Assembly: GCA_031362155.1 (NCBI GenBank)
Contig: JANLRZ010000206.1
Span: 16,805-80,804 of the forward strand
DNA from: Acidimicrobiia bacterium
Lineage (GTDB): Bacteria; Actinomycetota; Acidimicrobiia; IMCC26256; JAENVU01
DNA: 64,000 bases
Reading direction: 5' to 3'
In this document: positions 5,028 through 57,551 of the stretch, piece by piece
Position numbering within the stretch: position 1 is the stretch's first letter
Layout of the letters: each line of letters opens with the position of its first letter
The notes under the pieces: generated by a model
Database searches by the model: none
What the model was told of the DNA's origin: nothing
What the model saw: the letters and a program-made list of their open reading frames with translations, nothing else
Position numbers and translations under genes: made by a program

Positions 5028-5061
5028 AGCACCCACCATCGGGGCCTGCAAGGATCGCCCC

Positions 5062-20688: not shown

Positions 20689-20689
20689 G

Positions 20690-29744: not shown

Positions 29745-31814
29745 TCAGTCGCGGTTCTCCGGCGGGATCGAAGCGCGACACGCCCTCCCCCGGCACCCGT
29801 CGGACACCGAACCGTTGGACTTCCAGAACTCGCTCTTCATCGTGCGCACACGCGGGATGTTCGGAGTGTCATCGTGAGGATCGTGGCCCTCCCGGGGCGG
29901 CACGTTCGGTGCCGGCGACCGTGGCGAGCCGGTGTCCCACAGCCAGTAGGACGAACCCGAGAACGGATACCGCGAAATGGTGTCGAGCATGGCCTCGGGC
30001 CGGCGCTGGACCAACCGACCGGGTCGGGCGATCGGAGTGTGCGCCGAAGCTCCAATCGTGGCTGCCTCGACCCGGAGGCTGAACTCGCTCACCTGATGGT
30101 CACCCACCGCCCCGATCAACATCACCCGGTGACGCGGCGTCTTCGGCAACGGATCCGTCGTCATGTGGTTCGCGTAGCCGTTGGCCTCGCCGCGATCCCA
30201 CAACAATTGCGCCACCTCGAGACCGATCACGCGGTCCTGGCGCGCCGGATACGAGGGCCGCATCACGTTGAGGTACTCGTCGAAGTCGACGCTGCGGTCG
30301 AGCAGGATCGAATAGTTCATCCCGGCCTCGGCGAGCACGGACCGGGTGAAGTCGGTCGCGACTGCAGTCAGTGCGCCGCCCAGGATCGCGCCCTGGCTAT
30401 TACCGTCGTAATAGAGCGCGCGCCGGTCGATCGCGGGTCGGCCATCGACTTGGAACGCGGCATTCGCCGAGAACCCCTGGGGGTGGACCATGGCCCGGCC
30501 CAGGAAGAGGAACGCCAGGATCCCCTGGTGCAGCCGGTCGGCGAGCGACGGGAACTTCGACAGATCCTGGAGGATCGCCGCGGCGTTGCCGATGTCGTCC
30601 TCGGCCATTCCGTACCAGTCGGTGGCGCAATAGGCGATGTTGTGGTCGGCGGCCATCCGCTGCGTGAGGCTGCCGTTGACCTCGGACTGATCGCCGAGCA
30701 ACCCGTGCCCGTAGAGCGCGAGCCGCGAGGGAGTCGCGGTGGTCGACTCGGGCAGATTGCACGTGTAGCGCGCCGTGAAGGTTCCGGGCTGGCGTTGGGG
30801 GACTCCCTCGTCGTCCAACACCAACCGGCCGCCGGGCGCGCCGCCGTCGGTGAGGTAGAGCGGCATCTCGATGGTGCCTTCGATCCTGCGCGCGAAGAAT
30901 TCGCTCGGCCGTTCGGTCACGGTATCGACGGTGACGCTCGGCGCCGCCGAACCGAGCGAGCCGAAGGCGTCGTCACGGATCGATAGCATCCGACCGGTCA
31001 GGCTCTGCGTGCTCGCGACGGTGAAGTCCCATGCGAGCTGCAGGCTCCCGCGGCGCACTCCCGCGCGGGTGAGGCTCGCGAACACGCGATTCATGCGCGG
31101 TCGTCGAGACTCGAAGGTCGCGTTCGTCGTGCGCTGCCCGTCGCGGTACGCGGCGAAGGCGGCCGTGGCCCGAATCCGTCGACCCCGAGCGTCACGAAGG
31201 TTGCGCAGGCCGACCACGATGCGATGGCCATCGGCGAAGTTGCGCGCCGGGTGCACCATCAGGAGCGGCGGTTCCCCCGGGTCGGGCTGGGCATCGAGCT
31301 CGGCCCAGAACGGATGCCGCTCCCCCGTCGTCGCATCGATGAGCACGACGCTGGCATCCGGCGCGAGTGACTGTTTCCAATCCCGGATCGACGGAAGCCG
31401 GGACCGGGCGGCATCGAGCCGGGGGATCTGGGCCAGCAGCGTCGAGCCGGGGCTCCACCCGTCGGCTCGGTTCTGATCGGTCACGTCGATACGCACGCCC
31501 GCCGTGTTGGCCGGCATCGAGGCCGAATCCAGCGCGAGCCGGCGGCCGGTCGGGGTGTCCGGGTCGGCCTTCGTGAAGGTGTCGTTCGGCAGCGGGAGCA
31601 GACACCCACGACCGATCGGATCACAACGCGAGGTCGTCGCCGGATCGACGCCCAAACGATCGAGCGCCACCGGCGCAGCATCGGCCTGCGGGAGGTGGGC
31701 GCGCCCAGCCGACGAGTGGAGCGCCGCCCACGCGCTCGCGGACGCGCTCGTCAGTACCCCGACGACGACGATCAGGCTGAGCCAGCCCCGACCATCGCTT
31801 CTCGCCTGTTTCAT
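29745..31814 (-). CDS. Secreted alpha/beta-hydrolase-like protein (putative lipase/esterase)
   Basis: Signal peptide WLSLIVVVGVLTSASASAWA. Candidate nucleophile elbow YYDGNSQGAILGG and His in IGAVGDHQV. Family not identified by eye. Confidence 0.55.
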   Translation of the reverse strand: MKQARSDGRGWLSLIVVVGVLTSASASAWAALHSSAGRAHLPQADAAPVALDRLGVDPATTSRCDPIGRGCLLPLPNDTFTKADPDTPTGRRLALDSASMPANTAGVRIDVTDQNRADGWSPGSTLLAQIPRLDAARSRLPSIRDWKQSLAPDASVVLIDATTGERHPFWAELDAQPDPGEPPLLMVHPARNFADGHRIVVGLRNLRDARGRRIRATAAFAAYRDGQRTTNATFESRRPRMNRVFASLTRAGVRRGSLQLAWDFTVASTQSLTGRMLSIRDDAFGSLGSAAPSVTVDTVTERPSEFFARRIEGTIEMPLYLTDGGAPGGRLVLDDEGVPQRQPGTFTARYTCNLPESTTATPSRLALYGHGLLGDQSEVNGSLTQRMAADHNIAYCATDWYGMAEDDIGNAAAILQDLSKFPSLADRLHQGILAFLFLGRAMVHPQGFSANAAFQVDGRPAIDRRALYYDGNSQGAILGGALTAVATDFTRSVLAEAGMNYSILLDRSVDFDEYLNVMRPSYPARQDRVIGLEVAQLLWDRGEANGYANHMTTDPLPKTPRHRVMLIGAVGDHQVSEFSLRVEAATIGASAHTPIARPGRLVQRRPEAMLDTISRYPFSGSSYWLWDTGSPRSPAPNVPPREGHDPHDDTPNIPRVRTMKSEFWKSNGSVSDGCRGRACRASIPPENRD

Positions 31815-31931
31815 GGTTCGTGGTCTACCAGGACCACGCCACGACGCGCTGGGGTTCGGGCGCTGGGTTCGGGCGCCGGGGTTCGACGCGGGTGTTCGGC
31901 GCCATCCGCGATCGCGGGTCTGACCCCAGCG

Positions 31932-33209
31932 CTACGGCAGCGACTCGACGAGGTCCGAGGTGCACCAACTCGGCGAGTTGACCGGGTTGCAGCGCGCCGG
32001 GGTGCCGCCGGGGATCTGCACGAAGTACTCGGTGCCGAAGGCACGACCGGGCACGACGTAGTCGGTACTCACCCATTGCGCCGCCGACGCCAGCGCCGCC
32101 TCCCGGGTCGTGGTGTCGTTGATCCGCGCCTCGTGCGTGTCGGCATCGGTCCGGGTACGAATTACATAGCCCTGCGCCACGAGCGACTGGATGTCGGCGA
32201 GGCTGCCCTTGGCATCGTTGCGCTTGACGAACGCGGCGTCGTCGTCACCGGGGTTCGCGTTGGTGAAGAGCACCCGACCAGCTAGGCCCGGGTGACCGGC
32301 TCGATACCACGACCGCAACGTGCCGCCGTTGTCCATCATGAACATCACCTGGCCGCGCACGGCGTTGATCTCGGGCCAGCCGTCGATGGAGATGGCTTGG
32401 GGCAAGGTCGCGTGGTGGCGGCGCAGATCGTCCGGCGTGAACATCCGGTCCTCAGTGAACACCGAACGCAGCGCCGCATCGAGTGGGTCGAGATCGGCGG
32501 GAGTCCAGTTGTGGTACGGGAGACCGCCGACGTTGAAGTCGTTGTTCTTCAGTTCCAGCAGGATCGCGAGAGGGACGTGCTGCGGATGCGCGTCCGACCA
32601 CGTGCGGATGGTGGCCAGGCAGTCGAGCAACGCCCGGCACGTGGTTCCCTCGTCGATTCCCTGGATGTGCCCGACGCTGAAGGTGCCGTCGTTGTTCGCG
32701 TTGATGTCGAGTTCGAACTGGCGCACGCCTTGGTCTTGGAGTTGCACGTCGAGCGGATCCTCGAAGTACTGCAAGACCTCGATCGCGTCCAGTCCCGGCG
32801 TGGGGTAGGTGTGGTAGCTGTTGTGAGAACCCAGCGCCTGGATCTGGTTCAGACGGATCCCGCCGGTGAAGTACCCGATCCCTCGGCGCTTCTCGTCGCC
32901 GATCCGACTGCGCACCCAGAACGAGTGCGTGCCCGGTCCGGCCGTACCCACGTCGAAGGTGAACGTGAACGGCAAGGTCGCACTGCTGGCCACGAACGGA
33001 CCGGCTTTGCTGTCGAGCTGCACCGTGGTGTTCGCGGCGGTGCCGGCGGGCAGGTCCGGCGCGCTCACCGTGACCGTGCGAGCGCCCTGCGCGCCCGGCG
33101 GGCTGACGCGAACCTCGAGGACCGGTCCGTACCCGGGGCGAGGTGCGAGCCATTGACACCCTGCGCCCACCATTGCGAGCACGGCTACGACTGCAATTCG
33201 CTTCAGCAT
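31932..33209 (-). CDS. Lipoprotein with PLC-like phosphodiesterase (PI-PLC X-like) domain
   Basis: ATG 33209 with lipobox VAVLAMVGAGC. N-terminal beta-rich module, then QALGSHNSYH and a (beta/alpha)-barrel PLC-like pattern. The ORF-track N-terminal extension to 33803 is Arg/Gly-rich and overlaps the translin-like gene out of frame. Confidence 0.65.
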   Translation of the reverse strand: MLKRIAVVAVLAMVGAGCQWLAPRPGYGPVLEVRVSPPGAQGARTVTVSAPDLPAGTAANTTVQLDSKAGPFVASSATLPFTFTFDVGTAGPGTHSFWVRSRIGDEKRRGIGYFTGGIRLNQIQALGSHNSYHTYPTPGLDAIEVLQYFEDPLDVQLQDQGVRQFELDINANNDGTFSVGHIQGIDEGTTCRALLDCLATIRTWSDAHPQHVPLAILLELKNNDFNVGGLPYHNWTPADLDPLDAALRSVFTEDRMFTPDDLRRHHATLPQAISIDGWPEINAVRGQVMFMMDNGGTLRSWYRAGHPGLAGRVLFTNANPGDDDAAFVKRNDAKGSLADIQSLVAQGYVIRTRTDADTHEARINDTTTREAALASAAQWVSTDYVVPGRAFGTEYFVQIPGGTPARCNPVNSPSWCTSDLVESLP

Positions 33210-33274
33210 GACCCCAACGCCTCCCCAGGTGTCCGGAAGGTCCGGATTGTAGGCGCGCGATGTGACCACCGGTT

Positions 33275-33913
33275 TCAGGCGTCGACGATGCGGCTGCTCT
33301 CGATGGCCGCGCGCAGGCGCTGGGCCACCAACGCGTTGGTGAGATCGCCCCGCGTCCGTTCGATGACCGCGCGCAACGCGTCGGTCGTGCGCCGTAGTCC
33401 CCCGGTGATCGCATCCGGGTAGTCGACGGTGACGAGGAGTGCGTAGACCTCGTCCATCACGCCCAGGAGCTCTTCGGCACGACTCACACGGTCGGCACGC
33501 AGGCAATCCAGTATGTGTCGACGGAGTTCGCTGGCCGCTTCGGCCATGCCGTTGAGGTAGGCCGCGGTCTCCACGTGGATCGTCTCGGCCGCGGGCAGCG
33601 GATCGCCACGGACGAACGCCAGAGTCAGGTGCGCCTCGGCGAACTCCTTCTTGGCATCGTGCAGGTAGCCGCCGTGACGCACGTCGCGTTGGTCGGCCAC
33701 GGCCAGATCGGCCCGGGCCAGGTGGTCGCCCGCTTCGGCGATGAGCTCCTCGGCCCGCGCGAACTCTTCGCGTTGCACGGCGCGAATTGCCGCCGCACAA
33801 CACTGGATGGCGAGTCGGCAGGCGCCGAGCGTGACTTCGCGGGCTTGATGCTTGGCGTCGAGAATCGGCCGAGCGGTGTCGGCGATCTCGGCGATCTCGG
33901 ATCGGCGATCCAT
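33275..33913 (-). CDS. Translin-family protein (tentative)
   Basis: 212-aa all-helical sequence. AAYLNGMAEAASELRRHILDCLR...MDEVYALLVTVDYPDAITGGLRRTTDALRAVIERTRGDL resembles the translin/TRAX core (Y..G..D..GEL.R ... lr.k.d...vE). Read by eye only. Confidence 0.5.
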   Translation of the reverse strand: MDRRSEIAEIADTARPILDAKHQAREVTLGACRLAIQCCAAAIRAVQREEFARAEELIAEAGDHLARADLAVADQRDVRHGGYLHDAKKEFAEAHLTLAFVRGDPLPAAETIHVETAAYLNGMAEAASELRRHILDCLRADRVSRAEELLGVMDEVYALLVTVDYPDAITGGLRRTTDALRAVIERTRGDLTNALVAQRLRAAIESSRIVDA

Positions 33914-33931
33914 GACCGCGTGTCGAAACCG

Positions 33932-34444
33932 CTAGGAGTTGACGCTGCTGCGGTGCAGCACGAGCGCCCGCGGCTGGACCGATGGTCCCGGCAGGAAATG
34001 CACCTTGGCGCGGCGCTCATCGGCCCGACGCCGGATCGAGATCAACAGCCCCACGTAGGCCACCAACAACCCTGTGGCAACGAGATTGACCATCCACATG
34101 AGGGTGCTGCCGACCACCACGGCGAGCACCAGCGTTCCGAGCGCGGCCACGGCGAACACCATGAGTGCGTCGCGTCGGCGACGCTGGGCCACTGGCGACA
34201 TCGGCAATCCGGGCGTGGCACCCGCGGGTGCGCCAAACGCGGTCGGCTGGCGGGGAAGGTTGGGCATCGAGCTGCGGGCCGACGGCCGGCTCGGGAAGTG
34301 GCCCGTGGCCCGACCGACCATCGAGACGCGCTTGGAGAAGGCTCCGATAGAGCTTCGGCCACCGCCTGAACGGCGACGCTGCACGGACGGCCAGATGAAG
34401 AACGCCGCCCACAGCACTGCGAGGATCACGAGGATGATCGTCAA
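33932..34444 (-). CDS. Small membrane protein: TM, disordered Arg/Ser/Pro-rich loop, then 2 TM
   Basis: 170 aa. TM1 is IILVILAVLWAAFFIW, followed by a ~85-aa low-complexity basic region and two further TM helices. Stop lies 18 nt before the translin-like start. Confidence 0.6.
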   Translation of the reverse strand: MTIILVILAVLWAAFFIWPSVQRRRSGGGRSSIGAFSKRVSMVGRATGHFPSRPSARSSMPNLPRQPTAFGAPAGATPGLPMSPVAQRRRRDALMVFAVAALGTLVLAVVVGSTLMWMVNLVATGLLVAYVGLLISIRRRADERRAKVHFLPGPSVQPRALVLHRSSVNS

Positions 34445-34610
34445 AGCTCCCGGTCGCTTTCCGTGTCGCGGACGCTAACAAGCAGGAAACACTGGGCGGT
34501 GGATACCACCGACGGGCTCCGGCTGAGGTGCACCGGACCCTAGACGGGTCGAACCGGACGAGTCGAGCCGCGAAGCAAACAGACGTTCGGTGTTCGGTGC
34601 TGCGCTGGGG

Positions 34611-39603: not shown

Positions 39604-40221
39604 TCAGTTGACTCCTGATTCCGGTGGAGATGTCCCATCCGTCCGGAGTTCGGCCCCGCGGAGCAGTCGCCGGAGGTTCGGCAGGTGTCGAATGATCACC
39701 AGGAGGGCGAGCACGCTCGTGATCCCGATCTCCCATCCGGCTCGACCGGTCAGTGCACAGCCGACGGGGAACAGCACGGCGATGACGAGCGACCCGACCG
39801 AGGCCAATTTCAAGACCCGGGCCGCGACGAACCACACGGCGGCCAATACGAGCGACACCAGCGGGTTCAACACTGCGAGCATCCCGCCCGCGGTCGCCAC
39901 GCCCTTGCCACCCCGAAAACCCCGGGTGACGGGATAGGTGTGACCGATCACGGCCAGGAACCCGAGGACATAGGCCGCCGGCCGACCCGACACCACGAGC
40001 CCGACGCCCGCGGCGATCGCGCCCTTGGCCAGGTCGCCGGCCATGACGAGCAGTCCCGCCTTCCAGCCCATGATGCGGGCGACATTCGACGCCCCCGGAT
40101 TGCCCGAACCTTCGGCGGTGACGTCGTGGCCCCCGGCGCGCGCCACGAGGATGGCCGTCGGGAACGTGCCCAGGAGGTACGCCGGCACCGCAAGGAGGCA
40201 GATCCAGAGGGCGTCGGTCAT
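39604..40221 (-). CDS. plsY: Glycerol-3-phosphate acyltransferase PlsY
   Basis: 205-aa polytopic protein with GSGNPGASNV and FRGGKGVAT motifs. Confidence 0.9.
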   Translation of the reverse strand: MTDALWICLLAVPAYLLGTFPTAILVARAGGHDVTAEGSGNPGASNVARIMGWKAGLLVMAGDLAKGAIAAGVGLVVSGRPAAYVLGFLAVIGHTYPVTRGFRGGKGVATAGGMLAVLNPLVSLVLAAVWFVAARVLKLASVGSLVIAVLFPVGCALTGRAGWEIGITSVLALLVIIRHLPNLRRLLRGAELRTDGTSPPESGVN

Positions 40222-40309
40222 AGGACCCCATTATTCAAGGCCACAGGGGTGTCGGGTAGGATGGAAGGTCCCTCATTCACCCCGTTCTCCCTTTGAGGTC
40301 GCACCGAAA

Positions 40310-44703: not shown

Positions 44704-45537
44704 CTAGCCGACGGTTGCGGCGGCGTCGATCGACGCGAGGAAGCGGCGCAGCTCCGCCAGCCACGCGTCGCCGTTTTCGAACTGCGGTGAGTGACCCGCG
44801 TCGGGAATGACCACCAGCTCCGCACCGGGAATGGCCGCGGCCATGGCGTGCGATCCCGTAAGGAACGGTCGGTCTTGCGCACCGACCATCACCAAGGTCG
44901 GACACGACACCGCGACGGCCAACTGGTCGAGTTGCTCGGGTTGGTCGCGTACGTCGATCAGCATCTTCGTGTACATCGCCTGGCGCAGCGTCGCCCACTT
45001 GCGATCGCCGAACTCCCGGTAGCCGGGACGCTCGCGCAACATCTGCTCGTACGCCGGCGTCCCCAGCGGAGAGAACGCGTCCATGACGCGCTTGAGTTCG
45101 TCCATACCCTGCTCGTTCGCGATCTGGACCCCGAGGTCGATGATCTCGGAGTCCAGCGTCGGCACCGGGCCCGATGACGTGTCCATCAACACGAGTGCGT
45201 CGATCCGCTCAGGGGTGCGCAGGACGAACCGCCGCACCAGCATCCCGCCCATCGAGTGGCCCAACACTCGGAAGGTCGAGATGCCGAGTTGGTCGACCAC
45301 GCACTCGAGGTCGCTCGCGAACCGATCGAGGGAGTAGGCGTCCTCGTCCTCGGGGCCACCACTCGCCCCGTGGCCGCGTAGGTCGAACGCCACCACCCGG
45401 TGGTCGACCGCTAGATCGTCGATCTGATCGAAGAAGTCTTCCTTGGCGCCACCGAATCCGTGCACCAGCACCAGCACCGGCCCGGCGCCGCGATCGACGA
45501 CTTCCAACTCGACACCATCATCGGCGATGACGCGCAC
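44704..45537 (-). CDS. alpha/beta hydrolase
   Basis: HGFGGA oxyanion region, nucleophile elbow GHSMGG, His in DAGHSPQ. Start moved to GTG 45537, preceded by the strong RBS GGAGGAGGG-AAAC. ORF-track ATG 45588 would leave only 13 bp to the divergent gene. Confidence 0.85.
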   Translation of the reverse strand: MRVIADDGVELEVVDRGAGPVLVLVHGFGGAKEDFFDQIDDLAVDHRVVAFDLRGHGASGGPEDEDAYSLDRFASDLECVVDQLGISTFRVLGHSMGGMLVRRFVLRTPERIDALVLMDTSSGPVPTLDSEIIDLGVQIANEQGMDELKRVMDAFSPLGTPAYEQMLRERPGYREFGDRKWATLRQAMYTKMLIDVRDQPEQLDQLAVAVSCPTLVMVGAQDRPFLTGSHAMAAAIPGAELVVIPDAGHSPQFENGDAWLAELRRFLASIDAAATVG

Positions 45538-45601
45538 GTTTCCCTCCTCCGCATCCAAGACGCCACGGAAGGCGCCGAAGGACCCCATAGGCTAGGCCCT
45601 C

Positions 45602-46618
45602 ATGGAGGACCTCGACGCCGGAACCGACCGCGTCCCCACCCGACGGGGTCGGGTCGGCCTGGGAATCCGATTGGTGGTCAGCGCCGCACTCCTCGCCCTC
45701 CTGATCTCGAAGATCGACTTCGATGCCGTCGTCCCGCGTGAACGCCACTTCTCGACCCTGGTGTGGTTCGGGCTGGCGCTCGCGACGGCCTTCGTCGGCA
45801 TCATCCTGTCGGCGTGGCGGTGGCAACGGGTGATCCAGGCGTTCGGGATCCACGTGCCGCTGCGAACCCTGACCACGCACTACTTCGCCGGCCAGTTCGT
45901 CGGCAACGTCCTGCCCTCCACCATCGGCGGAGACGTCCTGCGGGTGACCCGGAGCGCGAAGAACATCGGATCTCGCGAGACCGCGTTCGCGGCAGTCGCA
46001 CTCGAACGCCTCACGGGGTTTCTCGTGCTGCCGCTCATCAGTGCAACCGGGTTCGTCATCGACCCGAACTTGCTCTCGTCTGACAAAGCGTGGGTCGCGC
46101 TGCTGATCTCCGGGATCACGCTCGCCGCGCTCAGCGTCATCCTGGTGCTCGCCGGCCACCCGAATGCGGCCGGGCGGTTCCAGCACAACGAGAACTGGAC
46201 CCGGTTCCTCGGCGCGGTGCACGTGGGCATCGGATATCTCCGCCGCGACCGGAGCCAGATCCTCGGCGTCGTCGGGACCGCGCTCATCTACCAAGCGTCC
46301 GTCGTGGTCATGGTCGGATTCCTGGTCCTCACCTTCGACGCCGGCATTCCCGCCGCGGCGCTCATCGCGTTCGTCCCGATCGTTGCCATCGCCCAGGTCG
46401 TTCCGATCTCGTTGTCCGGTCTCGGTGTCCGGGAAGGCATGTTGGTGCTGTTGCTCCACCCGCTCGGCGTGTCGACTGGGCACGCGGTCGGTATCGGCCT
46501 CGCCTGGTACGCAACGATGCTCATCGTCAGCTTGTTCGGCGCCCCGGCCTTCGCGGTCGGTCACCGCACACCCGCAACACCAACCTCTGCCGCCGAGAGC
46601 TCGCCGACGCCCACATGA
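45602..46618 (+). CDS. Flippase-like polytopic membrane protein (LPG-synthase-TM / UPF0104 family)
   Basis: 338 aa, ~8 TM. Pattern RWQRVIQAFGIHVPL...YFAGQFVGNVLPSTIGGDVLRV is typical of the MprF flippase-like domain family. Confidence 0.75.
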   Translation: MEDLDAGTDRVPTRRGRVGLGIRLVVSAALLALLISKIDFDAVVPRERHFSTLVWFGLALATAFVGIILSAWRWQRVIQAFGIHVPLRTLTTHYFAGQFVGNVLPSTIGGDVLRVTRSAKNIGSRETAFAAVALERLTGFLVLPLISATGFVIDPNLLSSDKAWVALLISGITLAALSVILVLAGHPNAAGRFQHNENWTRFLGAVHVGIGYLRRDRSQILGVVGTALIYQASVVVMVGFLVLTFDAGIPAAALIAFVPIVAIAQVVPISLSGLGVREGMLVLLLHPLGVSTGHAVGIGLAWYATMLIVSLFGAPAFAVGHRTPATPTSAAESSPTPT

Positions 46619-47421
46619 GCGACATCGTCCTCGAGGAACCTTCGGCGAGACTCCGACGCCTTCCGGGCGCTCGCATCCTGACCGGCGGCCGGGTGATCTA
46701 TTGGTGGTTCGAGATCATCGCGGTGCTGTCGTACTACTTCATCTATAGCGCCGTCCGGAATGCCGATGCCGACAAGCCCGAACTCGCACGCCAGCACGCC
46801 CTCCAACTGATCAACTTCCAGAAGACCCTCGGCATTTACCACGAGCAGGCAATCCACAAGTGGGCCATCCAGATCGAGCCCATGATCGTGACCGCCAACT
46901 ACTTCTACGGGTCGCTGCATTTCGTGGTCACGATCGGCGTCGCGATCTTCCTCTTCCGGAAGTTCCCGGACGACTATCCACTGTGGCGCAACACGCTCGC
47001 CATCGCCACCGCGCTCGCGCTCATCGGCTTCCGTTTCTGGCCGCTCATGCCGCCGCGCCTGCTTCCCCACCACTACGGGTTCGTCGACACGCTCGCCAAG
47101 TACCCGACGTTCTGGAGTTTCAACTCGGGGACGATGAAGAAGATCTCCAACCAGTTCGCAGCGATGCCGAGCGTGCACTGCGCCTGGGCACTGTGGTGCG
47201 CGTGCGTCTTGGTCCCGCGGTTGCGCTCGACCTGGGCCAAGCTGCTCGCGGGCTTGTACCCGGCGATGACGGTCACGGTCATTGTGGTCACGGCGAATCA
47301 CTACCTTCTCGATGCGGTCGGTGGCTTTGCCATCCTCGGCATCGGGTACGCGGCCGCGCGTGCACTCACGCGGGCTGGTCGTCCCCCGACCCTCGTTTCA
47401 CCCTCCGGCGAGCCGACATGA
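46615..47421 (+). CDS. PAP2-superfamily membrane protein, sphingomyelin/IPC-synthase-like (PAP2_C type)
   Basis: ATG 46615 overlaps the upstream stop (ATGA). Polytopic. C2-like PSVHCAW (SxH) and C3-like NHYLLDAVGG (HYxxD) motifs. Confidence 0.7.
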   Translation: MSDIVLEEPSARLRRLPGARILTGGRVIYWWFEIIAVLSYYFIYSAVRNADADKPELARQHALQLINFQKTLGIYHEQAIHKWAIQIEPMIVTANYFYGSLHFVVTIGVAIFLFRKFPDDYPLWRNTLAIATALALIGFRFWPLMPPRLLPHHYGFVDTLAKYPTFWSFNSGTMKKISNQFAAMPSVHCAWALWCACVLVPRLRSTWAKLLAGLYPAMTVTVIVVTANHYLLDAVGGFAILGIGYAAARALTRAGRPPTLVSPSGEPT

Positions 47422-48047
47422 GGGTCCGGACCCGCCTGCGCGATGCCGCGCGTTTCGCGGCCTACCGAGTCGGTGTGCGAAACGCGAGCCACCTTCGCCC
47501 GTGGCCCACCGGAACCTGGAACGACGACTGGCAGGCCGGCACATGGGACTACATGGCCGACACCGCCGAAGCACCGCGATACGCGTTACTCGCAGGGCTC
47601 ATTCTCTCCGAAGGTTCGCCCGGCACCGTCCTCGACATCGGCTGCGGCTCGGGGACCCTGCGCCACCATCTCCACCCCGACAGCTTCACGTCCTATCGCG
47701 GCGTCGACATCGCGCCGAGTGCGATCGAACGGGCGGCGAGCGCCGGGTACGAACGCAGCACGTTCGCGTGCACCGACGCGAGCACCCAGCCTCTCGATCC
47801 GGCTGAGACCGTGGTGCTCAACGAGGTTGCCTACCTCGTCGCCGACCCGGCGGCATTCATTGCCGACGTGGGCCGATTGGTCGTGCCGGGGGGCCGACTG
47901 ATCGCGTCGATCTATCGCCACCCCGGCGACATCGTCCATTGGCGGGCGCTCGACCGGGTCGGGCTCGCCACCGAGCGGATCTGGGTACGGAACAAAAACC
48001 CGAGCGCGCCGTACGGCACTCGGATCGTCTCGTACCGCATGCCCTGA
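47418..48047 (+). CDS. Class I SAM-dependent methyltransferase
   Basis: ATG 47418 overlaps the upstream stop (ATGA). Motif I VLDIGCGSGTL, post-I YRGVDIAPSAI, motif II-like VVLNEV. Confidence 0.8.
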   Translation: MRVRTRLRDAARFAAYRVGVRNASHLRPWPTGTWNDDWQAGTWDYMADTAEAPRYALLAGLILSEGSPGTVLDIGCGSGTLRHHLHPDSFTSYRGVDIAPSAIERAASAGYERSTFACTDASTQPLDPAETVVLNEVAYLVADPAAFIADVGRLVVPGGRLIASIYRHPGDIVHWRALDRVGLATERIWVRNKNPSAPYGTRIVSYRMP

Positions 48048-48077: not shown

Positions 48078-48965
48078 TCAGGTTCGTCGGGTGAAGCCCA
48101 CGATGCCCATGACCGCATCGCGCACCGCGAGGTCGGCCAACGACATCGGCGCGCCCTTCAGGGTGGCGAGACCTAACTGACGCCGAGGAAGGTCAACGAT
48201 GTCGAAGGTCCGCATGCCTTCGAGACTCGGAGGTACCGCGGTCTCAGGCAGCACGGCAATGCCCGCGCCCGCGGCCACGAGGTCCGCGATCAGCCGGATT
48301 CCTTCCACTTCCACCGGCACTTCGAGGTGCACCCCGAGCGCGGCCGCCGCGTTCTCGATCTCGGCCCGCAACGGGTTCACTTCTGGCGGGAGCACGAGCC
48401 GCATCCGCGCCAGATCCTTGACCTTGAGTGGTCCCGGCGGCAGGTCGGCATCGGCGGGCGCGAGCCCGACCATCGGCTCGTCGGCCAGGTGTTCGAACAC
48501 GATGCGCGGGTCATGCACCGGTGCGGTCACCAACGCCAAGGCGAGGTCTTGGGACACGACCTCGCCGATGAGCCGCTCCGACGCGCCTTCGTGCACGAGC
48601 AGTCGAACGCCCGGTGCCTGCTCTCGTAAGTGGGCCACGAGTTGGGGCACCAACCAGCGACTCGCGGTCCCCACCACTCCGAACGACGCGTTTCCGACGC
48701 GCAGTCCCTGCAGCGCGGCCAGTTCCTCGTGCAGCAGCTCGATCTCCCGCCGGACCCGACGCGCGTGCTCCAACACCACCCGACCGGACTCGGTCGGTCG
48801 GGCACCGCCTCGACCGCGAGCGAGCAGCGTGACGCCGAGTTCGCGCTCGAGCTGACGGACTTGTTCGGACACGTTCGACTGGACGGTTCGCAGCGCATCC
48901 GCCGCGGCCGTGAACGTTCCGGTCTCATCGATAGCGATCAGGGTGTCGAAATGGCGAAGTTCCAC
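48078..48965 (-). CDS. LysR-family transcriptional regulator
   Basis: N-terminal wHTH MELRHFDTLIAIDETGTFTAAADALRTVQSNVSEQVRQLEREL plus a LysR substrate-binding domain. 295 aa. Confidence 0.95.
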   Translation of the reverse strand: MELRHFDTLIAIDETGTFTAAADALRTVQSNVSEQVRQLERELGVTLLARGRGGARPTESGRVVLEHARRVRREIELLHEELAALQGLRVGNASFGVVGTASRWLVPQLVAHLREQAPGVRLLVHEGASERLIGEVVSQDLALALVTAPVHDPRIVFEHLADEPMVGLAPADADLPPGPLKVKDLARMRLVLPPEVNPLRAEIENAAAALGVHLEVPVEVEGIRLIADLVAAGAGIAVLPETAVPPSLEGMRTFDIVDLPRRQLGLATLKGAPMSLADLAVRDAVMGIVGFTRRT

Positions 48966-49586: not shown

Positions 49587-50642
49587 ATGCGGATGACTGA
49601 GACGACCGAGGGAGTCGACCTCGATCGACTCCAAGCATTCTTCGCGGCCAACGTCGCCGGAGCGACGGGCGGACCGCTGCAGGCGACCTTGATCGCCGGC
49701 GGACGCTCGAACCTCACCTACTCGATCACCGACGGTGCCTCGACCTGGGTGTTGCGGCGTCCACCCCTGGGACACGTGCTGCCGACCGCGCACGACATGG
49801 CACGCGAGTACCGCGTCATGTCGGCACTCGCGTCGACCGAGGTCCCGGTACCCCGCACGTTGGCCATGTGTGACGACCTGGCGGTGAACGGTGCGCCGTT
49901 CTACGTCATGGAACTCGTCGAAGGAACGATCTACCGCGACGGCAATGCGCTTGCCACGCTCGACGCGTCCGACGCCCGTCGTGCGTCCGAAGCCCTCGTC
50001 GACGTGCTCGCGGCCATCCACGCGGTCGACTACCGGTCCGTCGGCCTCGAAGACTTCGGTCGACCCGAAGGCTTCCTCGAGCGGCAAGTGCGGCGCTGGG
50101 GCGAACAGTGGGAACGATCCAAGACCCGTGAGCTCCCCAACGTCGACGAACTCGCTCGTCGTCTACGCAACGCGCTGCCCGAATCGGGTCCGCCGACGAT
50201 CGTGCACGGCGACTATCGCCTCGACAACACGATGATGGCGAACGACGACCCTGGGACGATCGTCGCGGTACTGGATTGGGAGATGTCGACCCTCGGCGAT
50301 CCGCTGACCGATCTCGGCCTCTTCCTCCTCTACTGGGGCCAGGCCGACGCGCAGATCATCGCGACCGGCGCCGCAATCGGCAGTCAGGACGGCTTCCTGA
50401 GCCGGGACGACATCGTGGCCCGGTACGCGTCGGCCAGCGGTCGCGCCGTCGACCAACTCGACTGGTACCAGATCCTCGCGTCCTACAAGTTGGCGATCAT
50501 CGTGGAAGGCATCAACGCCCGATACCAGATGGGTAAGACCCTCGGCGAGGGCTTCGAGACGATGGGCGCCATGGTGTCCGGGCTCATCGACAGTGCCCTC
50601 GAACACGCCAACCGCTCCGAGATCGTCGCCCTGCGCGGATGA
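49587..50642 (+). CDS. Phosphotransferase (APH/choline-kinase-like) family protein
   Basis: GGRSNLTY, catalytic loop IVHGDYRLDNTMM, and DWE motif VLDWEMSTLGDP. Confidence 0.85.
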   Translation: MRMTETTEGVDLDRLQAFFAANVAGATGGPLQATLIAGGRSNLTYSITDGASTWVLRRPPLGHVLPTAHDMAREYRVMSALASTEVPVPRTLAMCDDLAVNGAPFYVMELVEGTIYRDGNALATLDASDARRASEALVDVLAAIHAVDYRSVGLEDFGRPEGFLERQVRRWGEQWERSKTRELPNVDELARRLRNALPESGPPTIVHGDYRLDNTMMANDDPGTIVAVLDWEMSTLGDPLTDLGLFLLYWGQADAQIIATGAAIGSQDGFLSRDDIVARYASASGRAVDQLDWYQILASYKLAIIVEGINARYQMGKTLGEGFETMGAMVSGLIDSALEHANRSEIVALRG

Positions 50643-50663
50643 TCGCCGTGCTCACAGGGGTGA

Positions 50664-50694
50664 ACGCGGCCGGGGCTCGACGGGCCGCGTTTCC
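50664..50694 (+). terminator. Candidate intrinsic terminator after the phosphotransferase gene
   Basis: ACGCGGCC-(11 nt)-GGCCGCGT 8-bp stem followed by TTCC. The U tract is weak. Confidence 0.3.
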
Positions 50695-50752
50695 TCCCGT
50701 CCGCAGCACCTCCGCGTGAACGGTTGACGGGTCCACCCCCTACCATCGGGGG

Positions 50753-51610
50753 ATGAGTTCGTTGCAGTGGGACCACGAGCCGGTCCTCATCGACCCCGTG
50801 GTGCTCGCGGCTTTCACCGGTTGGAACGATGCGGCCGACGCCGCCAGCGACGCCGCCGACTGGGTCGCCGCCCGCTTCGGAGCCGTGGAGTTCGCGACGA
50901 TCGACCCACAGGTCCACATCGATTTCCAGGCGCAGCGACCCGTGGTCACGCTGATCGACGGCGTGACGCGTGACCTCTCTTGGCCGCAGTACTCGATCCG
51001 CGCTGCGGCCACGACCGACGGACAACCCGACCTCGTCGTCATCACCGGCCCGGAACCGAACTACGACTGGCGCGGCTTCTGCGACGCCATCATGGAGGTC
51101 GCCCGCACCGTCGGATCGACCACCGTGGTCACCTTCGGATCGCTGCTGGCCGACAGCCCCCATTCCCACGCGCCCCGCATCACGGGCAGCGCGACCGATC
51201 CCGACATCATGGATCGCATCGGCCTGACTCGGTCCCGATACGAAGGCCCGACCGGCATCGTCGGCGTCGTGCACGATACGTGTCGCCAGGCCGGGTTCGT
51301 CTCTGCGTCGCTGTGGGTGCCGGTGCCGCACTACGTGGCCGCCCCGCCCAACCCTCCGGCCATCACCGCCCTCCTCGAAGGCTTCTCCCGCACGGTCGGG
51401 CTCGACCTGGATCTGCGCGAGTTGCGCGTCGCCTCGGACGCGTGGCGGACCCGAGTCGATGCCGCGCTGGCCGCCGACGACGATCTGCGTGAGTACGTCG
51501 ACAATCTCGAAGCCCAGCAGGTCGACGATACGGTCGACCCTGACGAACTGCCCGACGGCGAATCGATCGCCGAAGCGTTCGAGGAGTACCTGCGCGACCA
51601 GGGATCCTGA
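50753..51610 (+). CDS. PAC2-family (proteasome-assembly-chaperone-like) protein
   Basis: LAAFTGWNDAADAAS..., ITGPEPNYDWRGF..., and an acidic C-terminus. This pattern is typical of actinobacterial PAC2 proteins. Confidence 0.8.
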   Translation: MSSLQWDHEPVLIDPVVLAAFTGWNDAADAASDAADWVAARFGAVEFATIDPQVHIDFQAQRPVVTLIDGVTRDLSWPQYSIRAAATTDGQPDLVVITGPEPNYDWRGFCDAIMEVARTVGSTTVVTFGSLLADSPHSHAPRITGSATDPDIMDRIGLTRSRYEGPTGIVGVVHDTCRQAGFVSASLWVPVPHYVAAPPNPPAITALLEGFSRTVGLDLDLRELRVASDAWRTRVDAALAADDDLREYVDNLEAQQVDDTVDPDELPDGESIAEAFEEYLRDQGS

Positions 51611-54150: not shown

Positions 54151-55583
54151 GCCGGGAGCGTACCCGGGGCGAACTTCGGCCACGGACGGACCGCCTCGAG
54201 CACCGCGCCTGCCGCGAGACACAACTCGTCTTCGTGCCGACGGGCCACGATCTGGAGTCCGCAGGGCATCCCACCAACCAGCGCCGACGGTATCGACATT
54301 CCGGGCTGACCGGTCATGTTGAACGGCACTGTGAACGGTGCCGAGAGGTACAACAGATCGACCTCGCGACCGTTGAGATCGCCGACGAGGGTGCCCTCGG
54401 CCTGGTACGCGGTGGTCGGCGTGGTCGGGACCAACAGGAGGTCGACCTGGTCGAACACCTCGGCCGACGCACACAGAACCTCTTGGCGACGCCGTACTGC
54501 CGCGCCGAGGTGACGCGCCCGCAGCCTCGGCAACCCCTCGACCGAGATCCGCGCCAGGACGTCGAGTTCGTCGATCTGTTCGGTGCACCGATCGAGCTTC
54601 CACGCGGCCAGGTCGCCGGCGCCCAGCATCCCCCACGCGCGGCCGGGCTTCGGGAACGCCATCGGAACATCGATCAGTTCGAGGCCGACCGCCTCGACCA
54701 ACGCCATCGCGAGGTCGTGGGTCGAGGCTTCCACCGCGTGATCGGTTTCGGCGTACCCGAGGGTGGAGCTCCACGCAACCCGTCGACCGCGCAGAAGATC
54801 GCGAGCACGGTCGACGTCGGCCACGAGCGGCTCGTAGGGCGCGGGCCGGGGCAGCGAGGTGGGATCGGCCACGTGCGGACCACTCGTCGCGTCGAGGTAG
54901 CGCGCTGCATCACGGACCGACCGCACCATGGGACCACTGACCGAGGTGAGGCCGGTGTCGAACGGGTCGTGCATGCCGCCGTGCGCGATGCGTCCGAACG
55001 TGGGCTTCATGCCCGGCAATCCGGTATAGGCCGACGGGATCCGAATCGAACCACCACCGTCACTCCCGGTGCACAGCGGCAACAGGCCCGCCGAGATCGC
55101 CGCCGCTGACCCGCCCGACGAGCCACCCGGCGTACGGTCGGTATTCCACGGGTTGCGCGTCACGCCATGGAGTGGACTCGCCGTGTAGCTCGGGATCCCG
55201 AACTCCGGGGCCGTGGTCAACGCGGTGACCACCGCGCCCGCGCCCCGCAGGCCGGCCACCTCGGGACAATCCTCGGGCGCGATCTCGTCGCGATACACGA
55301 CGGATGCGTGCGTGTCCGGGAACCCCTTCGCCTGGGCCAGTTCCTTCACGCCGAGCGGCACACCCGCGAACCGGCCCGGATCCTCACCGCGAGCCACCGC
55401 CGCGTCGATCTCGACGGCGCGAGCCCGCGCGCCCTCCTCATCCAGGAAGCACACCGCGTTGAGTCCGCCATTGCGATCGGCGATCCGCGCCAGCGACTCT
55501 TCGAGGATCGCAGTCGACGAGATCTCCCCACTGCGAACGGCGTCAGCCAGCTGCCACGCATCCTGTTGCCAGAGTTGAGTCAT
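54147..55583 (-). CDS. Amidase (amidase-signature family)
   Basis: GGSSGGSAAAISAG signature, catalytic Lys region LGVKEL. The ATG overlaps the upstream stop (ATGA at 55580-55583). Confidence 0.95.
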   Translation of the reverse strand: MTQLWQQDAWQLADAVRSGEISSTAILEESLARIADRNGGLNAVCFLDEEGARARAVEIDAAVARGEDPGRFAGVPLGVKELAQAKGFPDTHASVVYRDEIAPEDCPEVAGLRGAGAVVTALTTAPEFGIPSYTASPLHGVTRNPWNTDRTPGGSSGGSAAAISAGLLPLCTGSDGGGSIRIPSAYTGLPGMKPTFGRIAHGGMHDPFDTGLTSVSGPMVRSVRDAARYLDATSGPHVADPTSLPRPAPYEPLVADVDRARDLLRGRRVAWSSTLGYAETDHAVEASTHDLAMALVEAVGLELIDVPMAFPKPGRAWGMLGAGDLAAWKLDRCTEQIDELDVLARISVEGLPRLRARHLGAAVRRRQEVLCASAEVFDQVDLLLVPTTPTTAYQAEGTLVGDLNGREVDLLYLSAPFTVPFNMTGQPGMSIPSALVGGMPCGLQIVARRHEDELCLAAGAVLEAVRPWPKFAPGTLPA

Positions 55584-57007
55584 CCGACGGCTCCTTCGGC
55601 CACGTCGACGGGTTGATCGGCGTGGCGTAGCTCGGCGAGGGCGGTAAGGAGATCGTCGCCCAGTTCATCAAGATCGGGATTGGCATCAGCGTCGGCGTAC
55701 AGCCCGAAGTGCAAGGTGTCGCAGTACGACAAGATCGCGATGCCCAGACTCAGATTGTGCGTGAGTGGCACCAAGGGGTACGCCGCCTTCATGCGCCCGC
55801 CGAGGCAGTAGAGCGGCACCGGCGGTCCCGGGACGTTGGTGACCACGAGGTTCACGAACGGTTGGCGATGAATCGCCCGGGCGGCCAGACCCAAGAGCGT
55901 GGGCGCCGCGAAGTGGGTGAGGTCGAGCAAGAACGATGCGCCGACCGCTTGCTCCCGATCTTTCAGCGCCCGGGTGCACACACTGATCTCGCGCAGTCGC
56001 GTCACGGCATCGGGCTCGGCGATCGGGAGATCGACGAAGAGCGCTGAGATTTGGTTTCCGAGCTCGACATCGCTTCCGGGCTCGCGCACCGACACCGGGC
56101 ACAAGACCCGCAGGTGCTCCGGAAGGTCGTCGCCCCGGTCGATGAACCGCCGCCGCAACGCGCCGCTCACGATCGCCAGCACCACGTCGTTCACCGTGCC
56201 ACCACTCGTGCCCCGGATGGTCTGGACCTCGGCAAGCGGGATGGGCACGCCGACGAAACGGCGACGACGGCCCACGTCCACGTTGAGCGATGTACGCGGG
56301 GCGATCGGCGATCGATCGAACAGACTGCGGATTCCCTGACCCACCCGACTGGTCTTCTCCACGGCCCGATGCGGCGCGCGGGCCAGACCGCGCATCGTGC
56401 GCGCGATCTCGGTAGGTTCGGTCGAGCGTTCGACCAGCGTGTCGGCCAGCAGCCGAGCACTCGACGGTGCGGGTTCGGCGGTCCACGGTGGCGGCGGTTC
56501 GACCACGAAGTCCGGCGTGATATCGAGCAGCACCGTGGCCACGTCGACGCCCGACACCCCGTCGGTCATCGCGTGATGGGTCTTGTGGAGGAGCCCGACC
56601 GACCCATCCTCGAGCCCTTCGACGAACCACAGCTCCCACAACGGTCGCGAGCGGTCGAGCATGTGCGCTTGCACCCGGGCCGTGAGCTCGAGCAGTTGAC
56701 TCCACGAGCCGGGACGCGCCAACGCGGTCAACCGCACATGATACGAGATGTCGAATCGATCGTCATCTACCCAGATGGGGCGACCCTGTTCCATCGGCAC
56801 CGACATCAGGCGCTGACGGAACTTGGGGATCTGGTGCAAACGAGAAGCGACGAGCGCTCGGACATCTGCGAGTCGAAACCGGCCAGAGGCATCGAAGAAC
56901 GGCGCCCCCTCGAACGTGGCGAGCGTGCCCACGTGCATCGGAGTCTCGGGGGACTCCAGGTGCAGGAAGGAGGTGTCGAGCGAGCTCAACCGTTGGTACA
57001 CCGTCAC
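55580..57007 (-). CDS. Wax ester synthase / diacylglycerol O-acyltransferase (WS/DGAT)
   Basis: Active site HHAMTDGVSG (HHxxxDG). N-terminus ...YQRLSSLDTSFLHLE. Start is ambiguous between GTG 57007/57001 and ATG 57067. Confidence 0.9.
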   Translation of the reverse strand: MTVYQRLSSLDTSFLHLESPETPMHVGTLATFEGAPFFDASGRFRLADVRALVASRLHQIPKFRQRLMSVPMEQGRPIWVDDDRFDISYHVRLTALARPGSWSQLLELTARVQAHMLDRSRPLWELWFVEGLEDGSVGLLHKTHHAMTDGVSGVDVATVLLDITPDFVVEPPPPWTAEPAPSSARLLADTLVERSTEPTEIARTMRGLARAPHRAVEKTSRVGQGIRSLFDRSPIAPRTSLNVDVGRRRRFVGVPIPLAEVQTIRGTSGGTVNDVVLAIVSGALRRRFIDRGDDLPEHLRVLCPVSVREPGSDVELGNQISALFVDLPIAEPDAVTRLREISVCTRALKDREQAVGASFLLDLTHFAAPTLLGLAARAIHRQPFVNLVVTNVPGPPVPLYCLGGRMKAAYPLVPLTHNLSLGIAILSYCDTLHFGLYADADANPDLDELGDDLLTALAELRHADQPVDVAEGAVG

Positions 57008-57065
57008 GTGGCGGATCGTACCGGCCGGCGGTGAAGTCGGGTCGGGGTGCCAGTAGCGTCGCCTC

Positions 57066-57551
57066 ATGCAAACGGCGGCCGCACTCTGGCAGATCTCTCC
57101 CGAGCTCGTACTCGCGATGGACGCCGACCTCGGCCTCCCCGTCGACAGCTACGTCAACGGTTCCCAGACCTGGTTCACCGGAGAGCCAGTCCTGGAGTGG
57201 CGCCTGCATCCGGTGAAGGGATATCAGCCGCCCCCCGGGCTCTCCCCGTACGACCTCTGGGAAATCGTCGTCGGTTCGCTCGAACGTGACAACGATCCCA
57301 CCGCGATTCCGCTCGGCTCGGAGGCACGCGCCTTGACCGGTCTCTGGGACGGCCTCGAATGCTTCCCGGCCTATGGCGACGAACTCGAACCTGCGACCCT
57401 CGCCGAGCGGGTCCGTGAGGTCCTGACCATCGCGCCGGCGGCCTGCGGCCTGGTCGACCACGAGGTGGTCGGGAACGAGTGGGAGCGCACCCAGGGCGCA
57501 ATCTCGATCGTCAGCCTGCTCGGCGAACAGCTCGGTCTCACCGCTCGCTGA
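57066..57551 (+). CDS. Hypothetical protein
   Basis: 161-aa acidic ORF divergent from WS/DGAT. No domain recognised. Confidence 0.45.
   Translation: MQTAAALWQISPELVLAMDADLGLPVDSYVNGSQTWFTGEPVLEWRLHPVKGYQPPPGLSPYDLWEIVVGSLERDNDPTAIPLGSEARALTGLWDGLECFPAYGDELEPATLAERVREVLTIAPAACGLVDHEVVGNEWERTQGAISIVSLLGEQLGLTAR

Follow-up and report, generated by a model that had tools for sequence, protein, structure and literature searches.

An adjacent flippase-like and Aur1/Ipt1-class PAP2 gene pair as a candidate outer-leaflet headgroup-remodelling module in an Acidimicrobiia bacterium

A contig from an Acidimicrobiia bacterium (GenBank assembly GCA_031362155.1, contig JANLRZ010000206.1), analysed here over a stretch of 64,000 nucleotides (positions 16,805 to 80,804 of the forward strand, hereafter "the window"), encodes two adjacent integral membrane proteins that we propose to form a two-gene module for remodelling phospho-headgroups at the outer leaflet of the membrane. 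The first, encoded by open reading frame 1 (ORF1), resembles the lipid flippase domain of MprF, and the second (ORF2) is a PAP2-type enzyme of the family that includes the inositol phosphorylceramide (IPC) synthase Aur1; from families and structure models, we assign the proposal a probability of roughly 0.5. A third gene, ORF3, encodes a methyltransferase and follows directly. The initial annotation of the region had joined all three in one system that builds, methylates and flips an unusual lipid headgroup. The three plus-strand frames, their lengths and the two four-base ATGA overlaps that connect them were recovered exactly as it described (Table 1), as were the motifs it quoted (PSVHCAW and NHYLLDAVGG in ORF2, VLDIGCGSG in ORF3), while the unit worth studying appears to be the ORF1-ORF2 pair rather than the trio.

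Results

Conservation of the ORF1-ORF2 pair

All three ORFs are genuine genes, since they have very strong homologues (best E-values of 1e-176, 2e-195 and 8e-128) and a high GC content at third codon positions (GC3; approximately 0.87 for ORF1 compared to an overall GC content of 0.67 in the window). The closest named relatives of the window are metagenome-assembled genomes from Acidimicrobiia. To place the genes in their wider context, 80 loci were collected from species-representative genomes using an ORF2 profile, extra loci were added for individual metagenomic homologues, and all loci were screened with the proteins of the window. Neighbouring genes were compared as GC3-filtered stop-to-stop ORFs, a procedure in which the stop-to-stop extension fuses some neighbours.

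ORF1 and ORF2 homologues were found adjacent to each other in 40 related loci, counting the window. An NTGA start/stop overlap joins the two genes in 28 of these 40 pairs (16 ATGA, 11 GTGA and 1 TTGA), and the remaining 12 have either a single-base overlap or a gap of 7–22 bases. The pair is also kept in lineages of the Acidimicrobiales where both flanks have changed relative to the window, where bacA or an FlK thioesterase gene precedes it and it is followed by dxs or a polyprenyl synthetase gene instead of the LysR-WhiB-APH genes. A homologue of ORF3, on the other hand, was present in none of the 80 species-level loci. The gene-neighbourhood comparison suggested in the initial annotation thus supports ORF1 and ORF2 as conserved partners and speaks against co-conservation of the trio; what is conserved is the pair. 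The overlaps taken alone are unremarkable, since four-base overlaps are common in compact operons, and the earlier assertion that such tight coupling implies stoichiometric co-function does not follow from ATGA coupling.

Genes of isoprenoid metabolism recur in the surroundings of the PAP2 gene in other Acidimicrobiales. In 19 such loci, dxs lies on the same strand at most 300 bp downstream of it (mostly within 100 bp), a polyprenyl synthetase gene follows it directly in 3 loci, and bacA/uppP is found within 6 kb in 20 (examples among loci L018-L083 are L083 6808-8676, L024 6772-8652 and L036 6801-7898). In the loci of the window's own clade, by contrast, the pair has no isoprenoid gene beside it. 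In six Acidimicrobiales loci, the hydrolase gene found upstream of the pair and the flippase-like gene are separated by a gene for a predicted lipoprotein rich in Ala, Gly and Asp, which has a lipobox (LTACGG) and no Pfam match (two examples in Table 1).

ORF1 is a standalone flippase-domain protein

ORF1 matched the Pfam family PF03706 over almost the entire profile (E-value 2.9e-39, 135.8 bits compared to a cut-off of 33.4, profile positions 3–300 of 302), and also exceeded the cut-off of TIGR00374 (48.4 bits, cut-off 43.2). The protein has approximately 7–8 hydrophobic segments. Sequence and profile searches of the PDB with ORF1 returned nothing meaningful; a fold search with its AlphaFold2 (AF2) model (predicted local distance difference test score, pLDDT, of 79) gave six cryo-electron microscopy (cryo-EM) structures of MprF as the sole confident PDB matches (probability 1.00, TMq 0.51–0.58, 315–345 aligned columns). 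By family and predicted fold, ORF1 is a putative standalone lipid translocase or scramblase of the MprF type (PplT/UPF0104/YbhN), which bears out its first description as MprF-flippase-like.

ORF2 is an Aur1/Ipt1-class PAP2 enzyme

Neither of the two profiles that the initial annotation had named for ORF2 gave a match above threshold: the general PAP2 model PF01569 scored 18.5 bits, which is under its cut-off of 27.2, and the sphingomyelin-synthase model PAP2_C (PF14360) gave nothing at E ≤ 0.01. ORF2 instead matched PAP2_3 (PF14378), the Aur1/Ipt1 family, over virtually the whole profile (E-value 8.7e-45, 153.3 bits compared to a cut-off of 27, profile positions 2–189 of 190). Its PSVHCAW motif provides the S-x-H of the C2 motif (S186 and H188), and NHYLLDAVGG the H-x3-D of the C3 motif (H229 and D233). 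These four residues, as well as R148, were invariant in 22 ORF2 homologues with 61–83% sequence identity. H188, H229 and D233 correspond to the triad of Aur1 (H255, H294 and D298), for which a two-step phosphohistidine mechanism has been proposed from cryo-EM and mutagenesis (PMC13133130). The phosphatase signature KX6RP (C1), which the initial annotation had singled out as the sign of an ordinary phosphatase, was not found in ORF2, where the equivalent loop carries only the invariant R148. The serine-arginine (SR) dipeptide of C3 was likewise not found, the positions five to six before H229 being occupied by V and I.

ORF2 has six hydrophobic segments, predicted to span the membrane. In a fold search its AF2 model (pLDDT 81) was most similar to the IPC synthases 9vj4 and 9ivc, with weak E-values of around 1e-2; the phosphatases LpxE and PgpB ranked next, and the sphingomyelin-synthase-related protein SMSr (8ijq) was placed 10th with a probability of 0.30. 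PDB sequence and profile searches using ORF2 and its alignment returned nothing, even at an E-value of 10. Family and catalytic triad place ORF2, with its six predicted helices, among the PAP2_3 enzymes of Aur1/Ipt1 type, and the modelled fold leans weakly in the same direction; this is in line with its earlier description as IPC-synthase-like. The family is large, comprising 4,453 clusters at 50% identity when collected at E ≤ 1e-3, and 378 at E ≤ 1e-30.

Two fusion-like records were encountered among the homologues. One, P0158, combines a partial flippase domain with PAP2_3 and was not used as evidence, being a singleton on an ENA contig with truncated domain matches; it is probably a frameshift merge across a 4-base overlap. 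In the other, P0232 (WP_461030571.1, Streptomyces sparsus), a C-terminal fragment of a GT87 domain is fused to PAP2_3; this is a single partial record from a 1267-bp contig. GT87 is a family of polyprenyl-phosphate-mannose-dependent mannosyltransferases, and the record may tie the PAP2_3 family to glycolipids of the phosphatidylinositol mannoside (PIM) or lipomannan type; being partial, it serves as a lead only.

Predicted topology of ORF2 and the order of steps

Across the ORF2 family, the density of lysine and arginine is 0.19–0.35 in the N-terminus, two short loops and the C-terminus, compared to 0.12, 0.08 and 0.00 in the three loops on which both the triad and the conserved polar residues are located. 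From this charge distribution and the positive-inside rule, we infer that the catalytic loops lie outside and that the active site is extracytoplasmic, which is consistent with the position of the Aur1 triad at the luminal base of its chamber (PMC13133130). With the site predicted to face outward, the lipid would be flipped first and modified afterwards, and any methylation would have to take place before translocation. The build, methylate and flip sequence proposed initially conflicts with this topology and appears to be in the wrong order, because a cytoplasmic SAM-dependent (S-adenosylmethionine-dependent) enzyme cannot reach a product made outside.

ORF3 and the variable third slot

ORF3 contains the motif I sequence VLDIGCGSG and scored above the cut-offs of PF13489, PF08242, PF08241, PF13847 and PF13649; these matches identify it as a class I SAM methyltransferase, as first annotated, and the protein is soluble. 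Its resemblance to the nodulation methyltransferase NodS is marginal for the Pfam model PF05401 (26.6 bits, cut-off 24) and under the cut-off for the NodS equivalog model (28 bits compared to 300). In the PDB, ORF3 matched the NodS structure 3ofj with an E-value of 1.2e-5. None of its 19 NCBIfam matches was a model for phospholipid N-methyltransferases of the PmtA type, for which the only trace was a generic match to the PDB entry 8ys9 (E-value 4.7e-4).

Besides its absence from the species-level loci, ORF3 is missing even in close relatives whose ORF2 homologues share 87% and 81% identity with that of the window, where the third slot is empty or holds a Glyoxalase_4 gene and no methyltransferase. 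A search of 5.8 billion proteins yielded no more than 10 homologues, and the family could be traced to six lineages (Table 1). In four of these, the gene lies directly after PAP2_3, either overlapping it or separated from it by at most 2 bases, and in two it is located elsewhere. One of the latter is a glycan cluster in locus L092, encoding an epimerase/dehydratase-like protein, a GT2 glycosyltransferase, the methyltransferase, a 475-aa polytopic protein, a polysaccharide deacetylase, a second GT2 and an ABC ATPase resembling Wzt. The epimerase/dehydratase-like gene was called by eye from sequence, and the polytopic protein has no Pfam match. The composition of this cluster resembles NodB/C/S, which together with the NodS resemblance of ORF3 itself hints at an amino sugar or glycan as substrate.

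Across loci, the slot after PAP2_3 may be empty or contain a gene of the VOC family (Glyoxalase_4), a methyltransferase gene, both, or dxs. A two-domain Glyoxalase_4/VOC protein of approximately 250 aa is its commonest occupant, seen in at least 12 loci and often start/stop-coupled (examples in Table 1), and is absent from the window. Within one genome, ORF3 shares 56% identity with its counterpart in the window, compared to 78% for ORF2 and 72% for ORF1, so ORF3 evolves faster than the core. Considering its sequence and distribution, ORF3 is a lineage-restricted accessory gene outside the conserved core, although a functional connection with the pair is plausible, given that the gene has been retained in this slot.

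Table 1 Positions of the genes and other features discussed. Loci other than the window are labelled L followed by a number and have their own numbering.
Feature	Locus	Position	Strand	Description
ORF1	window	45602-46618	+	338 aa; PF03706, MprF-flippase/PplT type
ORF2	window	46615-47421	+	268 aa; PF14378 PAP2_3, Aur1/Ipt1 family
ORF3	window	47418-48047	+	209 aa; soluble class I SAM methyltransferase, NodS-like
ORF1/ORF2 ATGA start/stop overlap	window	46615-46618	+	read from sequence
ORF2/ORF3 ATGA start/stop overlap	window	47418-47421	+	read from sequence; same overlap in L088, L093 and L094
Alpha/beta-fold hydrolase, divergent	window	44704-45588	-	PF00561, E 3.7e-38
Divergent intergenic region	window	45538-45601	.	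64 bp with GTG 45537; 13 bp with ATG 45588
LysR-family regulator, convergent with ORF3	window	48078-48965	-	PF00126 and PF03466
APH-like gene	window	49587-50642		
PAC2 gene	window	50753-51610		
ORF3 lineage, after PAP2_3	L084, L088			the window's own lineage; 99% (L084) and 92% (L088) identity
ORF3 lineage, after PAP2_3	L093			69% identity
ORF3 lineage, after PAP2_3	L094			59% identity; glyoxalase-like gene next
ORF3 lineage, after PAP2_3	L089, L090			56% identity; glyoxalase-like gene next
ORF3 lineage, elsewhere	L091			catabolic-looking cluster
ORF3 lineage, elsewhere	L092	1-6628		46% identity; glycan cluster
Glyoxalase_4/VOC gene	L085	2218-2982		
Glyoxalase_4/VOC gene	L089	7632-8417		
Glyoxalase_4/VOC gene	L001	8887-9642		
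Predicted lipoprotein	L028	3916-4947	-	lipobox
Predicted lipoprotein	L078	3848-5179	-	lipobox

Genomic neighbourhood

The divergently oriented hydrolase gene upstream of ORF1 encodes 294 aa if translated from ATG 45588, the start called in L088, and 277 aa from GTG 45537, the length called in L084. Position 45538 is the first intergenic base given the GTG start, while ORF1 itself begins at 45602, and the spacing of 64 bp reported in the initial annotation consequently holds for the GTG start and shrinks to 13 bp for the ATG start. The region between the two genes presumably holds both promoters; a scan of it for the sigma-70 consensus gave zero matches. The hydrolase is cytoplasmic as judged from its sequence, and its gene lies beside the pair in 23 of the 39 loci with a flippase gene, and beside PAP2_3 alone in 3 of the 52 others. 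In several relatives the hydrolase gene is followed by a gene for a thiamine pyrophosphate (TPP) enzyme, which is missing from the window. A MenH-MenD pairing was considered for these two genes and no such link is claimed, as the hydrolase scored 98 bits compared to a MenH cut-off of 208.

Downstream, the LysR-family gene was considered as a possible regulator of the operon. This idea was rejected because the gene converges with ORF3, diverges from a whiB-like gene at approximately 49.1 kb, and is syntenic in the closest clade only. It is probably not part of the module. A terminator-like hairpin of 11 pairs followed by a T-run (47997-48026, minus strand) lies within the 3' end of ORF3, just past the LysR stop at 48078, and may be a LysR terminator embedded in the ORF3 coding sequence. 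Further downstream, two crcB (fluoride channel) genes are found between the APH and PAC2 genes in relatives including L088, whose operon proteins are 92–93% identical to the three of the window, and none is present in the corresponding interval of the window (50643-50752), which suggests either a recent deletion in the window or an insertion in the relatives.

Two other lipid-related genes are encoded in the window, a WS/DGAT wax-ester synthase/diacylglycerol acyltransferase approximately 7.5 kb downstream of the operon (55583-57148, minus strand) and the glycerol-3-phosphate acyltransferase PlsY approximately 5 kb upstream (39607-40230, minus strand). Diacylglycerol is the expected by-product of an Aur1-type reaction; the two genes are regarded as lipid genes of the wider neighbourhood only. 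More distant features of the window include an ORF with both an alpha/beta hydrolase and an adenylate/guanylate cyclase catalytic domain (4771-6423, plus strand), a fusion of an ABC-transporter ATPase and a cyclic-nucleotide-binding domain (20447-21670, plus strand) beside an FtsX-like permease, and GGDEF and GGDEF-EAL proteins at both ends. A 728-aa ORF (GC3 0.84) and three smaller ORFs in the area of 29748-34474 (29748-31931, minus strand; 32296-32805, plus strand; 33278-34474, minus strand) had no Pfam match at E ≤ 1e-5.

Discussion

Proposed function of the pair

In the proposed module, ORF1 would bring a lipid that is synthesised at the cytoplasmic leaflet across to the outer one, or return a product such as diacylglycerol. 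ORF2, with its His-His-Asp centre (H188, H229 and D233) predicted on the extracytoplasmic face, would attack the phosphate of a lipid headgroup at the outer leaflet by way of a phospho-histidine on H229, and would most likely pass the phospho-headgroup to a hydroxyl of a lipid, glycolipid or lipoglycan, releasing diacylglycerol in the manner of Aur1/Ipt1; transfer to water seems less likely. Phosphatidylinositol (PI) is a plausible donor, since cultivated Acidimicrobiia contain PI and PIMs, besides diphosphatidylglycerol (DPG) and sometimes phosphatidylcholine (PC) (PMC12263773). ORF3, if it belongs to the pathway, would tailor an amine or sugar in the headgroup of a cytoplasm-facing precursor before translocation.

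Several of our observations weigh against this proposal. Regarding the enzyme, LpxE, which is a phosphatase, almost equals the IPC synthases as a fold match of ORF2, and sequence cannot separate a transferase from a hydrolase in this case. The model for the Bacteroides PI-dihydroceramide synthase (NF052609 equivalog), moreover, gave ORF2 only 18.5 bits (cut-off 480) in an alignment confined to the catalytic core (residues 174–244), and by sequence ORF2 is not an orthologue of that enzyme, the sole characterised bacterial member of the family. Regarding the genomic context, 52 of the 91 loci with an ORF2 homologue have no adjacent flippase gene, which includes the Ilumatobacteraceae, some Microthrixaceae and all Streptomyces, Kitasatospora and Actinacidiphila loci, and the Streptomyces orthologues are solitary, situated between a LacI/sugar-ABC (maltose-type)/alpha-glucosidase cluster and glnE. 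With so many loci lacking the neighbour, ORF2 needs no strictly dedicated flippase beside it. The region around the pair is also a long, conserved housekeeping block of otherwise unrelated genes (TldD/PmbA, FlK, hydrolase, LysR, WhiB and APH), so some of the adjacency is just synteny by descent.

The alternative that survives best, although we consider it unlikely, is that ORF2 is an outward-facing phosphatase acting on lipid phosphates or polyprenyl diphosphates in carrier-lipid recycling, with ORF1 moving polyprenyl diphosphate outward and polyprenyl phosphate back. Membership of the PAP2 superfamily and the presence of LpxE and PgpB among the fold matches fit such a role, as do the ORF2 homologues near dxs (19 loci), polyprenyl synthetase (3) or bacA/uppP (20). 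The isoprenoid genes are, however, not found beside the pair in the window's own clade, and the dxs association may itself be inherited synteny; ORF2 in addition falls under the PF01569 threshold, has neither KX6RP nor the SR before the C3 histidine, and finds its best fold matches among transferases.

Poorer still are the prospects of a second alternative, in which ORF1 and ORF2 are co-transcribed and functionally independent housekeeping membrane proteins, placed next to each other and made to overlap by genome compaction and inherited synteny. The syntenic block, the many loci without a flippase gene, the solitary Streptomyces orthologues and the commonness of four-base overlaps can all be read in this way, but a start/stop-coupled pair that survives in lineages with both flanks replaced is harder to reconcile with it. 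The two proteins, as predicted from their families, would both act on membrane lipids, and there is repeated precedent for the flippase domain travelling with lipid-headgroup enzymes.

Least probable of all is an obligate stoichiometric trio of flippase, headgroup transferase and methyltransferase that builds, methylates and flips one unusual lipid: ATGA coupling does join all three genes, the tiny methyltransferase family occupies this slot in four of six sampled lineages down to 56% identity, and the 46%-identical relative in the NodB/C/S-like cluster makes a glycolipid or amine substrate plausible, but the methyltransferase is found in 0 of 80 species-level relatives, is missing at 81–87% ORF2 identity from a slot with varying contents, has one relative in an unrelated catabolic context (L091), matches no phospholipid N-methyltransferase model and, being soluble, could not act on an outer-leaflet product unless that product returns.

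Should the two-gene module proposed here be correct, the MprF-type arrangement would extend to outer-leaflet enzymes, with the flippase supplying a substrate rather than exporting a product, and would open a first way to the function of an actinobacterial family of Aur1-like membrane enzymes that is very large and highly conserved but unstudied. A broader idea, which we put forward as a long shot, is that the PplT-PAP2_3 pair and the large actinobacterial PAP2_3 family constitute an outward-facing, Ipt1- or LtaS-like phospho-headgroup transferase system of the Actinomycetota, in which a glycolipid, lipoglycan or wall polymer at the outer leaflet would receive an inositol-phosphate, glycerol-phosphate or related group from PI, phosphatidylglycerol (PG) or phosphatidylethanolamine (PE), with the NodS-like methyltransferase pre-tailoring the headgroup in a few lineages. 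Such a broad transferase system, if real, would supply an enzyme for decorations that have no assigned transferase.

Comparison with known systems

ORF3 shares with NodS the class I SAM fold, a PF05401 score just over the cut-off and a relative near GT2 and deacetylase genes, and differs in lying far under the NodS equivalog cut-off. The phosphatases PgpB, LpxE and BcrC and the transferase LpxT share with ORF2 the superfamily fold and, as predicted for ORF2, an outward site and the C3 histidine nucleophile. ORF2 differs from them in scoring below the PF01569 threshold and in lacking the C1 lysine, the arginine-proline (RP) dipeptide and the C3 SR. The KX6RP and C3 SR residues bind the terminal phosphate in enzymes of the PgpB and BcrC types. 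Closer to ORF2 are Aur1/Ipt1 and the Bacteroides PI-dihydroceramide synthase BT_1522, with which it has in common PF14378 and the S-x-H/H-x3-D triad, and IPC synthases head its fold matches, with weak E-values; the module described here differs from Aur1 in having no Kei1-like partner. With Ipt1 there is already a case of a glycolipid sugar serving as acceptor, and ceramide is not known to occur among actinobacterial lipids.

The flippase domain of the MprF type is widespread, occurring standalone or fused to varied enzymes, and is encoded in E. coli together with the cardiolipin synthase ClsB (10.1101/2022.03.11.483950). MprF from P. aeruginosa is a promiscuous, energy-independent scramblase, and the authors of that work propose the partner enzyme as the determinant of the physiological substrate (PMC11980842). 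By Pfam and by fold, ORF1 shares its transmembrane domain with MprF, and here too a putative lipid-headgroup enzyme is paired with a translocase. The MprF enzyme, however, is an aminoacyl-phosphatidylglycerol synthase, which uses tRNA, works in the cytoplasm and forms one protein with the flippase, so that its product is exported once it has been made, whereas ORF2 is a separate integral-membrane PAP2_3 protein with a site predicted to face outward, so that translocation would precede catalysis. ORF1 furthermore reached only 17 bits on the MprF equivalog model (cut-off 600).

A separate UPF0104/PplT protein encoded beside lipid-headgroup enzymes, as seen here, is also a feature of clsB-ybhN (pplT), of gpgSDF in P. 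aeruginosa and of hexSDF in C. difficile, the latter two being operons in which the standalone flippase-like protein is encoded with a glycosyltransferase and a deacetylase. The partners in those systems are different, namely a phospholipase D (PLD)-type cardiolipin synthase or a glycosyltransferase with a deacetylase, of which GpgS and GpgD are predicted to be cytoplasmic. The view in the initial annotation that no characterised pathway contains this trio held within the literature searched, with the qualification that the general design already exists in ClsB-YbhN, GpgSDF and HexSDF. No description of a PAP2_3 partner for a flippase-like protein was found in the same literature, including the ClsB-YbhN and GpgSDF papers. 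Pairing a lipid enzyme with a separately encoded flippase-like protein is thus a known design, and what is new in the present pair is the PAP2_3 partner and the predicted catalysis at the outer leaflet.

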